Positions 2,089-61,220 of a stretch of 64,000 bases of DNA are shown here, piece by piece. This stretch comes from Escherichia coli (lineage in GTDB: Bacteria; Pseudomonadota; Gammaproteobacteria; Enterobacterales; Enterobacteriaceae), in the NCBI RefSeq assembly GCF_050920415.1, contig NZ_CP169309.1; one strand, written 5' to 3'. The notes beneath the pieces are model-generated. The model did not search any database. It was not told the origin of the DNA and saw only the letters and a program-made list of their open reading frames with translations. Positions within the stretch are counted from its first letter, which is position 1, and the number at the start of each line of letters is the position of its first letter. Position numbers and translations under genes: made by a program.

Positions 2089-3120
2089 TTAGTCGCTGGT
2101 TGCATGATGACTTGCCTCCAGCGACGGAGTTGACACTGAATGGCGACGTACCAGCGTCGGACTAAAGACATTAGTGATTTCCGGGAGAGGGCGATTATCA
2201 GCCAGCGCCAAAGCCAGTTCGGCAGCCTGGGTCGCCATCGTCACGATTGGGTAACGCACGGTGGTCAGACGCGGGCGCACATAGCGTGACACCAGCACAT
2301 CATCAAAGCCAATTAACGAAATCTCACCCGGTACTTCAATACCATTATCATTGAGAACGCCCATCGCACCCGCCGCCATTGAATCGTTATAACAGGCTAC
2401 CGCAGTGAAATTCCTTCCGCGTCCCAAAAGCTCGGTCATTGCCTGTTCGCCGCCGCTTTCGTCTGGTTCGCCAAATGTCACCAGCCGATCATTGGCCGGA
2501 ATACCACTTTCAGCGAGGGCATCGTAATAACCCTGCAGACGATCTTCGGCGTCAGAAATAGAGTGGTTAGAGCACAGATAACCAATGCGGGTATGACCTT
2601 GTTGAATTAGATGACGCGTTGCCAGCCAGGCACCGTAACGGTCGTCCAGAGCAATACAACGGTTTTCAAAGCCAGGCAGGATGCGGTTGATCAGCACCAT
2701 ACCGGGCATTTGTTTCATTAATGAGGCTAAGTCGGCATCCGGGATCATTTTGGCATGGACGACCAGCGCAGCGCAGCGATGGCGGATCAGTTGCTCAATG
2801 GCCTGACGCTCTTTTTGCTCGTTGTGGTAACCGTTGCCAATCAATAAAAAATTACCAGTGTGATAAGCCACCTGTTCGACCGCTTTCACCATTGCACCGA
2901 AAAACGGATCGGAAACATCACCAACGACCAGACCGATCGTTTCAGTGGTCTGCTGCGCCAGCGCACGGGCGTTGGCGTTCGGGTGATAGCTAAGAGACTC
3001 CATTGCACTATGCACAGCCAGTCGGGAAGCTTCGCTGGCTTTGGGTGAATTATTAATGACGCGGGAAACGGTGGCGACTGAAACGCCTGCCAGTCGGGCT
3101 ACATCCTTTATGGTCGCCAT
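2089..3120 (-). CDS. galR: Galactose operon repressor (LacI family)
   Basis: 343 aa ORF starting MATIKDVARLAGVSVATVSRV (HTH); recognised as GalR. Confidence 0.95.
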   Translation of the reverse strand: MATIKDVARLAGVSVATVSRVINNSPKASEASRLAVHSAMESLSYHPNANARALAQQTTETIGLVVGDVSDPFFGAMVKAVEQVAYHTGNFLLIGNGYHNEQKERQAIEQLIRHRCAALVVHAKMIPDADLASLMKQMPGMVLINRILPGFENRCIALDDRYGAWLATRHLIQQGHTRIGYLCSNHSISDAEDRLQGYYDALAESGIPANDRLVTFGEPDESGGEQAMTELLGRGRNFTAVACYNDSMAAGAMGVLNDNGIEVPGEISLIGFDDVLVSRYVRPRLTTVRYPIVTMATQAAELALALADNRPLPEITNVFSPTLVRRHSVSTPSLEASHHATSD

Positions 3121-3333
3121 GAAAATACCTTAGTGGGTAAACGCTTACGTTCTGTCAGTGTTACGGAAAATACCTGTTGGTTCAAGTGGCGACGTGTTTT
3201 CATCGTGGGAATGTGAGCCAAACGCAAATAAATAAGACAAAAAAAGAGATTGCAAACCTTTGGTTACACTTTGCGAAACGCTGTTGCGATTGACCGCTGG
3301 TTGCGTTTGGCTTCAGGTTGCTAAAGTGGTGGT

Positions 3334-3416
3334 CCCAGAGGTATTGATAGGTGAAGTCAACTTCGGGTTGAGCACATGAATTACACCAGCCTGCGCAGAT
3401 GCGCAGGTTTTTTTTT
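3334..3416 (+). ncRNA. omrB: OmrB small regulatory RNA
   Basis: Starts CCCAGAGGTATTGATAGGTGA, ends with hairpin CCTGCGCAGATGCGCAGG plus T9; shares 5' and 3' ends with the adjacent copy; lies between galR and aas, where I recall the OmrA/OmrB pair. Confidence 0.85.
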
Positions 3417-3530
3417 GCCGGCCATCAATCTGTAACAGTAACCGACAATTTACACACCTCGTTGCATTTCCCTTCATTCCTTTGCGTTTTCTCGCTGGCG
3501 AAGAGTCGTTGTGCAGACCACAATCAAGAT

Positions 3531-3618
3531 CCCAGAGGTATTGATTGGTGAGATTATTCGGTACGCTCTTCGTACCCTGTCTCTTGCACCAACCTGCGCG
3601 GATGCGCAGGTTTTTTTT
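3531..3618 (+). ncRNA. omrA: OmrA small regulatory RNA
   Basis: Starts CCCAGAGGTATTGATTGGTGA, ends with hairpin CCTGCGCGGATGCGCAGG plus T8; paralogous to the upstream copy. Confidence 0.85.
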
Positions 3619-3684
3619 CGCACCTAATTTACTGTCGCTCGCGTTCTTTATCTCGTGTAATCTCCCTCCATTCGCTTTTACTGA

Positions 3685-7051
<3,367 letters not shown>

Positions 7052-29089: not shown

Positions 29090-29290
<201 letters not shown>

Positions 29291-37702: not shown

Positions 37703-37779
<77 letters not shown>

Positions 37780-37812
37780 TCACCGTACTGCTTTACTTCA
37801 TCAAATTTTGAT

Positions 37813-37889
<77 letters not shown>

Positions 37890-37922
37890 TCACCGTACTG
37901 CTTTACTTCATCAAATTTTAAT

Positions 37923-37999
<77 letters not shown>

Positions 38000-38032
38000 T
38001 CACCGTACTGCTTTACTTCATCAAATTTTAAT

Positions 38033-38109
<77 letters not shown>

Positions 38110-42432: not shown

Positions 42433-42638
42433 AAAAAAAAGCACCGCAATTAGGCGGTGCTACATTAATCACTATGGACAGACAGGGTAAATGTACAGGA
42501 AGTGAAAAAAGGTAGCTTTGCTACCATGGTCTGAATCGCAGACCAATTGCAAACACAACAACACAACATCACAACCGTAAGCCAAAAGTTCACCAGAACA
42601 CGCATTCCGATAAAACTTTTCGTTCCGGCTCAGGAAGT
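42433..42638 (-). ncRNA. gcvB: GcvB small RNA
   Basis: Minus-strand sequence begins ACTTCCTGAGCCGGAACGAAAAG, contains the GT-rich region GTTGTGATGTTGTGTTGTTGTGTTTGCAATTGG, ends with terminator GCACCGCCTAATTGCGGTGC plus T8; divergent from gcvA. Confidence 0.88.
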
Positions 42639-60809: not shown

Positions 60810-61177
60810 GTCGACAGGGAGTCAGACAACGAAGTGAACATCAGGATGATGACACTTCTGAAGGACACACCAGGAGGGTGTTTCAGGGAAAGGCTTCTGG
60901 ATGAAGCGAAGAGGATGACGCAGGACGCGTTAAAGGACACCTCCAGGATGGAGAATGAGAACCGGTCAGGATGATTCGGTGGGTCAGGAAGGCCAGGGAC
61001 ACTTCAGGATGAAGTATCACATCGGGGTGGTGTGAGCAGGAAGCAATAGTTCAGGATGAACGATTGGCCGCAAGGCCAGAGGAAAAGTTGTCAAGGATGA
61101 GCAGGGAGCAACAAAAGTAGCTGGAATGCTGCGAAACGAACCGGGAGCACTGTGAATACAGTGCTCCCTTTTTTTAT
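60810..61177 (+). ncRNA. csrB: CsrB sRNA (CsrA-sequestering)
   Basis: Begins GTCGACAGGGAGTCAGACAACGAAGTGAACATCAGGATGATGACAC; at least eight CAGGATG/AGGATGA-type motifs counted by eye; ends with hairpin GGGAGCACTGTGAATACAGTGCTCCC plus T7; between syd and yqcC. Confidence 0.9.
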
Positions 61178-61220
61178 TCCTGCTATCCTTCGCGGCAGTT
61201 TTTCTTATTGAGGTTGCTTT

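Follow-up and report, generated by a model that had tools for sequence, protein, structure and literature searches.

Duplicated sRNAs with a common seed, a common terminator, and diverged promoters are represented by Qrr1-4/5 of Vibrio, GlmY/GlmZ, and the RyhB paralogues of Salmonella, which thereby integrate different signals onto overlapping targets. OmrA and OmrB follow the same design, while Qrr, GlmY/GlmZ, and RyhB belong to other families with other regulators and targets. Unlike those pairs, OmrA and OmrB are encoded adjacently in tandem and have one common activator, OmpR, which they also repress. MicF and MicC resemble OmrA/OmrB in being EnvZ-OmpR-regulated and Hfq-dependent and in repressing outer-membrane protein mRNAs by pairing with their translation initiation region. 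To our knowledge, MicF and MicC have no sequence or structural homology to OmrA/OmrB, are single-copy, and exert no feedback on ompR.

OmrA and OmrB have a central role in regulating the composition of the outer membrane, iron uptake, motility, curli, biofilm, and EnvZ-OmpR itself. In the curated record of K-12 MG1655, omrB (b4445, 82 nt) adjoins galR and omrA (b4444, 88 nt) adjoins aas; the two RNAs were formerly named RygA/RygB or SraE and are filed under Rfam RF00079. Both promoters are directly activated by OmpR-P in vitro, and at PomrA the interval from -114 to -60 is needed for OmpR activation, with truncation to -60 abolishing OmpR control (PMC5175337). RstA in multicopy activates omrB specifically, and the substitutions T-75C and A-68G in PomrB abolish RstA activation and lower OmpR activation from 81-fold to 3.3-fold (PMC13425233). 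The same study found the B1 box to be highly conserved in PomrB and reported four conserved regions specific to omrA (PMC13425233). Dependence on sigmaS is conferred on omrA by -12C, while omrB carries -12T and is not sigmaS-dependent (PMC12692685). Both RNAs bind Hfq, and the repression of cirA and ompT needs Hfq as well as RNase E (PMC2588501). Compensatory mutations established that nt 2-10 of OmrA and OmrB pair with cirA, ompT, and the ompR 5' UTR, and the pairing with ompR gives negative feedback on EnvZ-OmpR (PMC2588501).

The window, which is the whole stretch of 64 kb that was analyzed, contains two repeated elements that are the omrB and omrA genes of E. coli, an already known and ordinary pair. 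On the + strand, both matched the OmrA-B model RF00079 across all of its 87 positions (1-87), with 96.6 bits for omrA and 86.1 bits for omrB at a curated gathering score of 40 bits. When the spacer was aligned to K-12, the mature RNAs of omrB and omrA were identical to b4445 and b4444, respectively. The first-pass annotation had read the elements as the OmrA/OmrB pair and had proposed a search with the Rfam model; the search was run, both copies scored far above the gathering score, and the full-length matches and the K-12 sequence identity bear the reading out. The order given there, OmrB followed by OmrA, is also correct, because 3334-3415 equals K-12 b4445 and 3531-3618 equals b4444. All features used for the assignment are present, namely a length of 82 nt, a galR-proximal position, and -12T for OmrB, and a length of 88 nt, an aas-proximal position, and -12C for OmrA. 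A permissive Rfam rescan of the spacer yielded nothing credible beyond OmrA-B. Sub-threshold matches in the spacer to Leu_leader (23-27 bits, gathering score 50) and to TeloSII_ncR49 (23 bits, gathering score 55) were rejected as terminator-driven noise.

The pair had further been placed between galR and aas, and both flanks score above their curated NCBIfam cutoffs (Table 1); farther out follow lysA on the galR side and lplT on the aas side. Two units of ~85 nt, ~200 bp apart, with a common 5' end and different middles had been described, in good agreement with the 82 and 88 nt found here at a start-to-start distance of 197 nt, with 115 nt between the units. Their starts have the exact 15-mer CCCAGAGGTATTGAT in common, the identity amounts to 20/21 nt at the 5' end and 32/35 nt at the 3' end, and the middles, of 26 and 32 nt, are unrelated. 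This 15-mer has two exact copies in the window, where 0.06 would be expected with up to two mismatches allowed, and none of 100 shuffles reached the observed count. In the 5' region of galR, at 3130-3150, GTGGGTAAACGCTTACGT resembles a half-palindrome of the Gal repressor operator (TAAACG/CGTTTA type), which we take to be operator-like and which would presumably fit an autoregulation of galR.

The significance of the locus is one of annotation only. The omr genes are missed by ORF callers, and PGAP leaves them unannotated in the majority of E. coli genomes in RefSeq; they are rightly called invisible to an ORF-based view because PGAP-annotated RefSeq genomes list no feature there. An open reading frame overlapping omrA and the start of aas (3545-3781, 78 aa, TTG start) was set aside as an artefact of ORF listing. 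Of the 585 bp of the galR-aas spacer, ~400 bp (3220-3618) consist of the two promoter-plus-gene units, and the unusual length of the spacer is thus largely explained, as had been suggested. The correct label accounts for this spacer and prevents its being taken as unexplained.

Table 1. Features of the omrB-omrA locus and its flanks, in window coordinates.
Feature	Position	Strand	Basis and remarks
galR flank	2089..3120	-	Divergent from omr genes; NF008002, 734.7 bits, cutoff 557; layout as in K-12
PomrB upstream activator box (published B2) AACCTTTGGTTACACTTTGC	3255..3274	+	T-75 at 3259, A-68 at 3266
PomrB conserved block GCTGTTGCGATTGACCGCT (-54 to -36)	3280..3298	+	Invariant TGTT, C, A, T, T at 3282-3298
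PomrB -10 hexamer TAAAGT	3322..3327	+	-12T, sigma-70 type; position computed from TSS
omrB (82-nt Hfq-dependent sRNA OmrB)	3334..3415	+	Rfam RF00079; = K-12 b4445
OmrB 5' target-pairing (seed) region	3334..3354	+	20/21 nt = OmrA; unpaired in Rfam consensus
omrB intrinsic terminator	3388..3416	+	Terminator scan; hairpin 3388-3409 + run of 9 T (K-12: 8 T)
PomrA-specific conserved box TGTAACAG (-100 to -93)	3431..3438	+	Kept in Enterobacteriaceae rows, absent upstream of omrB
PomrA upstream activator region	3449..3466	+	TTTACA (-82) and GTTGCA (-70)
PomrA -10 hexamer CACAAT	3519..3524	+	-12C and -13C; sigmaS determinant
omrA (88-nt Hfq-dependent sRNA OmrA)	3531..3618	+	Rfam RF00079; = K-12 b4444
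OmrA 5' target-pairing (seed) region	3531..3551	+	20/21 nt = OmrB; unpaired in Rfam consensus
omrA intrinsic terminator	3591..3618	+	Terminator scan; hairpin 3591-3612 + run of 8 T
aas flank	3706..5865	+	Downstream of omrA, co-oriented; NF005959, 1527.9 bits, cutoff 886; layout as in K-12

Both copies begin with the conserved 5' end CCCAGAGGUAUUGAU.GGUGA. The minimum free energy (MFE) folds consisted of a central hairpin and a terminator hairpin in both RNAs, with z-scores of -2.9 and -2.7; the 5' end was fully open in OmrA and largely open, partly paired, in OmrB. The terminator hairpins, CCTGCGC-AGAT-GCGCAGG and CCTGCGC-GGAT-GCGCAGG, had been called near-identical and are one loop base apart. 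They form stems of nine pairs with six GC pairs, followed by at least eight T, and the terminator scan found intrinsic terminators in the spacer on the + strand only. A GC-rich palindrome followed by a T-run in both elements would also be seen if these were non-coding repeats that yield no RNA themselves, for example REP/BIME-like palindromes or duplicated terminators for the flanking genes, and the empty PGAP annotation of the spacer in most strains agrees with that reading. Yet neither gene needs a terminator in the spacer, because galR runs divergently and has its 3' end away from the spacer, and aas begins only downstream of it. The repeat is confined to the omr locus and not dispersed, both elements have full-length Rfam matches, and each is preceded at a constant distance by an invariant -10 element. 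Furthermore, the best-conserved part is the single-stranded 5' 21-mer and not the palindrome, though the search pattern had prescribed 19 of the leading 20 bases, and discrete transcripts of 82 and 88 nt have been published for the identical K-12 sequence, with the RNAs shown by Northern blots and in vitro transcription (PMC5175337, PMC2588501). The probability left for non-coding repeats is negligible, and the two elements are treated as sRNA genes in the following.

Orthologues were collected by a search for the 5' motif in a single genome of each species, which yielded 120 loci with 170 copies across Enterobacterales, including Citrobacter, Enterobacter, Kluyvera, Pantoea, Erwinia, Serratia, Pectobacterium, Dickeya, Edwardsiella, Hafnia, and Rahnella. 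Fifty of these loci had two copies, mostly 188-307 nt apart, and the galR/aas synteny was found in 57 loci, i.e., those in which both flanks were visible. When 21 diverse copies were aligned with MAFFT, blind to structure, no gaps fell in the 5' or the 3' module. The first 15 nt and GGTG were invariant in all 21, although for the seed this invariance is in part built in, since the scan pattern demanded it (19 of the first 20 bases fixed). The terminator helix was 100% paired across the 21 orthologues, with compensatory double changes at three of eight pairs (U-A to C-G, A-U to G-C, and C-G to U-A), while in slid-partner controls the pairing fell to 18-50% and all double changes were gone. The GGUG/CACC helix never varies and is therefore uninformative on covariation. 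As MAFFT could not place the variable central hairpin, its covariation was left uncounted and each sequence was folded by itself with shuffles, which is weaker than column-wise covariation; by this measure the hairpin was kept in all 141 unique sequences though 136 of them differ in the central sequence (median z -1.95).

In Pantoea and Erwinia (seven loci), the two omr copies lie ~2.03-2.10 kb apart, compared with ~200 nt elsewhere. In Pantoea stewartii (locus L011, 2747-4879), the gap holds a gene for a 579-aa FtsI-like penicillin-binding protein (NF011685, 687 bits, slightly short of the 737-bit cutoff), which is presumably an inserted paralogue of PBP3.

Since omrA is co-oriented with aas, ends 87 nt before the aas start codon, and keeps this orientation across genera, it could be read as a cis-acting leader or attenuator of the aas-lplT operon, instead of or in addition to a trans-acting sRNA. 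The sub-threshold Leu_leader similarity (23-27 bits, gathering score 50) points in the same direction, but it is far under the threshold and overlaps the generic terminator. That terminator is strong (nine pairs, eight U), no alternative anti-terminator was evident in the folds, and both RNAs persist in Pantoea and Erwinia although ~2 kb, in P. stewartii a whole gene, lies between the copies. As published work has omrA and omrB transcribed as separate units and has proven their trans targets through compensatory mutations (PMC13425233, PMC2588501), a leader function of 3531-3618 is very improbable, and OmrA is regarded here as a trans-acting sRNA.

The similarity of the two units reaches beyond the RNA ends, upstream into the promoters, which refines the first-pass annotation. 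PomrB and PomrA resemble each other in GTT[A/G]CA at about -70 and in TTGCG.TT...GCTGG at about -50 to -33; therefore, the ancestral duplication appears to have covered promoter and gene, about 200 bp. The first-pass annotation had named missing promoter elements upstream of either copy as evidence against the pair. The published -10 hexamers are present at both, while a sigma-70 consensus promoter scan of 3050-3780 was blank, with 0 sites against 0.7 expected. The blank scan was not counted against the promoters because their -10 hexamers are weak matches (four of six positions), because they depend on activators and have poor -35 elements, and because -11A and -7T are invariant. The promoter calls for omrB and omrA accordingly rest on published mapping and on conservation.

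Conservation was assessed in alignments of 16-17 promoters that are mutually <80% identical. The bases -11A and -7T were invariant in 16 PomrB and 17 PomrA orthologues. In PomrB, GTTACA at 3263-3268 is intact with A-68 inside, and TTACA (3264-3268) and TTT (3270-3272) are invariant across genera. In PomrA, GTT.CA at about -70 is invariant across the 17 orthologues, and both TTTACA (-82) and GTTGCA (-70) fall within the interval from -114 to -60. The omr promoters further have a conserved TGTTGCGATT / TTGCGTTTT...CTGG block at about -54 to -33, and the block GCTGTTGCGATTGACCGCT of PomrB is probably the published box B1. Among the two-copy loci, -12T was found in 39 of 41 first copies and -12C in 26 of 43 second copies, 23 of the 43 having CACAAT as the -10 hexamer. 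KTTRCA occurred in second copies at -69 to -71 (36 of 43) and at -80 to -82 (17 of 43). We infer the OmpR sites of omrB and omrA from the published mutational and deletion data.

Target pairing was predicted with RNAduplex between the 21-nt 5' ends and K-12 target regions, and the sites were ranked, out of 44, against gene starts of the window. On ompR, the predicted duplex places sRNA nt 1-9 on ACCUUUGGGA, at -19 to -10 and abutting the Shine-Dalgarno sequence; on ompT, it places nt 1-9 on +13 to +21, a coding-region site in agreement with the published one. For OmrB, both duplexes ranked first of 44, and for OmrA they ranked seventh (ompR) and third (ompT) of 44. The published cirA site was unrecovered by duplex energy, as 16-17 of 44 background sites were as good and RNAduplex preferred another upstream site. 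Because the published pairings are short, as remarked in PMC2588501, energy alone is not diagnostic, and the miss of cirA fits this remark. With the ompR site of OmrA at rank seven of 44 and cirA at background, in-silico pairing alone would not establish targets.

The locus almost certainly consists of two tandem, independently transcribed paralogous genes for Hfq-dependent sRNAs, which would have arisen by ancient duplication of the ~200-bp promoter-plus-gene unit. Phosphorylated OmpR, from the EnvZ-OmpR envelope-sensing two-component system, would bind ~60-115 bp upstream of each start and activate transcription; omrA would additionally depend on sigmaS via -12C, and omrB, with its sigma-70-type -10 element, may also be activated by RstA. 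Each transcript is predicted from sequence to end at its own hairpin and U-tract, which would double as the 3' module for the published Hfq binding. Through short complementary stretches, the single-stranded, near-identical 5' 21 nt would pair with target mRNAs (ompT, cirA, fecA, fepA, csgD, flhDC, btuB, dgcM, and others) at their translation start or close to it, and this pairing would block translation and trigger RNase E-dependent decay. As ompR itself is a target, OmrA and OmrB would form a negative feedback loop on their own activator. Identity, anatomy, conservation, structure covariation, promoter determinants, and the recovery of the ompR and ompT sites come from the present analysis, and the control by OmpR, sigmaS, and RstA, the requirement for Hfq and RNase E, and the repression of targets come from published work on the identical K-12 sequences.

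Of 5,426 complete E. coli genomes, 5,423 have the spacer, and the copy described here is 100% identical to that of strain MFDS1022581. An identity of 99% or more was reached by OmrB in 5,332 of its 5,413 matching genomes and by OmrA in 4,913 of its 5,416. The K-12 locus has the same mature RNAs, gene order, orientation, -10 hexamers, activator boxes, and terminators as the locus described here. The spacers differ in 14 alignment columns (13 substitutions and one extra T), all of them outside the annotated mature RNAs. These comprise the extra T after the U-tract of omrB, two substitutions in PomrB (G-to-T at -32, A-to-G at -2), two further changes between the omr genes, and nine on the galR side.

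The -32T allele of PomrB (window position 3302), the sole oddity of the locus, is rare, occurring in 5 of 5,334 complete E. coli genomes as counted by exact match to the 47-nt stretch around this position. With this change, PomrB gains a TTG motif that lies downstream of its conserved CTGG block and ahead of the -10 hexamer. It is conceivable, but unlikely, that -32T alters the basal or activator-dependent expression of omrB and hence the OmrA:OmrB balance in this lineage, and any such effect on expression is speculative. The -32T base also completes a perfect 12-nt inverted repeat (3216-3227 / 3301-3312; 11 of 12 in K-12) that brackets the OmpR/RstA-responsive region of omrB. Neither arm was conserved outside Escherichia in the alignment of PomrB orthologues, and the exact repeat pair was found among the fetched loci only in a near-identical strain. 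As a regulator site or looping element the repeat was therefore rejected, since it is unconserved, completed by the rare -32T, and probably fortuitous.

Two further sRNA genes are present in the window with full-length Rfam matches, namely CsrB at 60819-61178 (+, 380.9 bits) and GcvB at 42433-42638 (-, 199 bits). Besides the omr pair, the only other local 15-mer repeats in the 64 kb are a short one near 29.15 kb, with copies ~30 nt apart, and a tRNA array. Close to the former (29147-29178), the sequence GTAGGTCGGATAAGGCGTTCACGCCGCATCCGAC at 29200-29240 looks like a REP/BIME extragenic palindrome. The array at 37703-38109 (-) consists of four tandem identical initiator-type tRNA-Met(CAT) genes with a spacing of 110 nt, while the corresponding K-12 locus has three genes (metZ, metW, metV), and the strain studied here thus seems to be one repeat unit richer. 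The distance from omrA to this tRNA-fMet array is ~34 kb (window roughly 3.6-37.7 kb) compared with ~28.5 kb in K-12, and the interval therefore holds roughly 5-6 kb of extra DNA.
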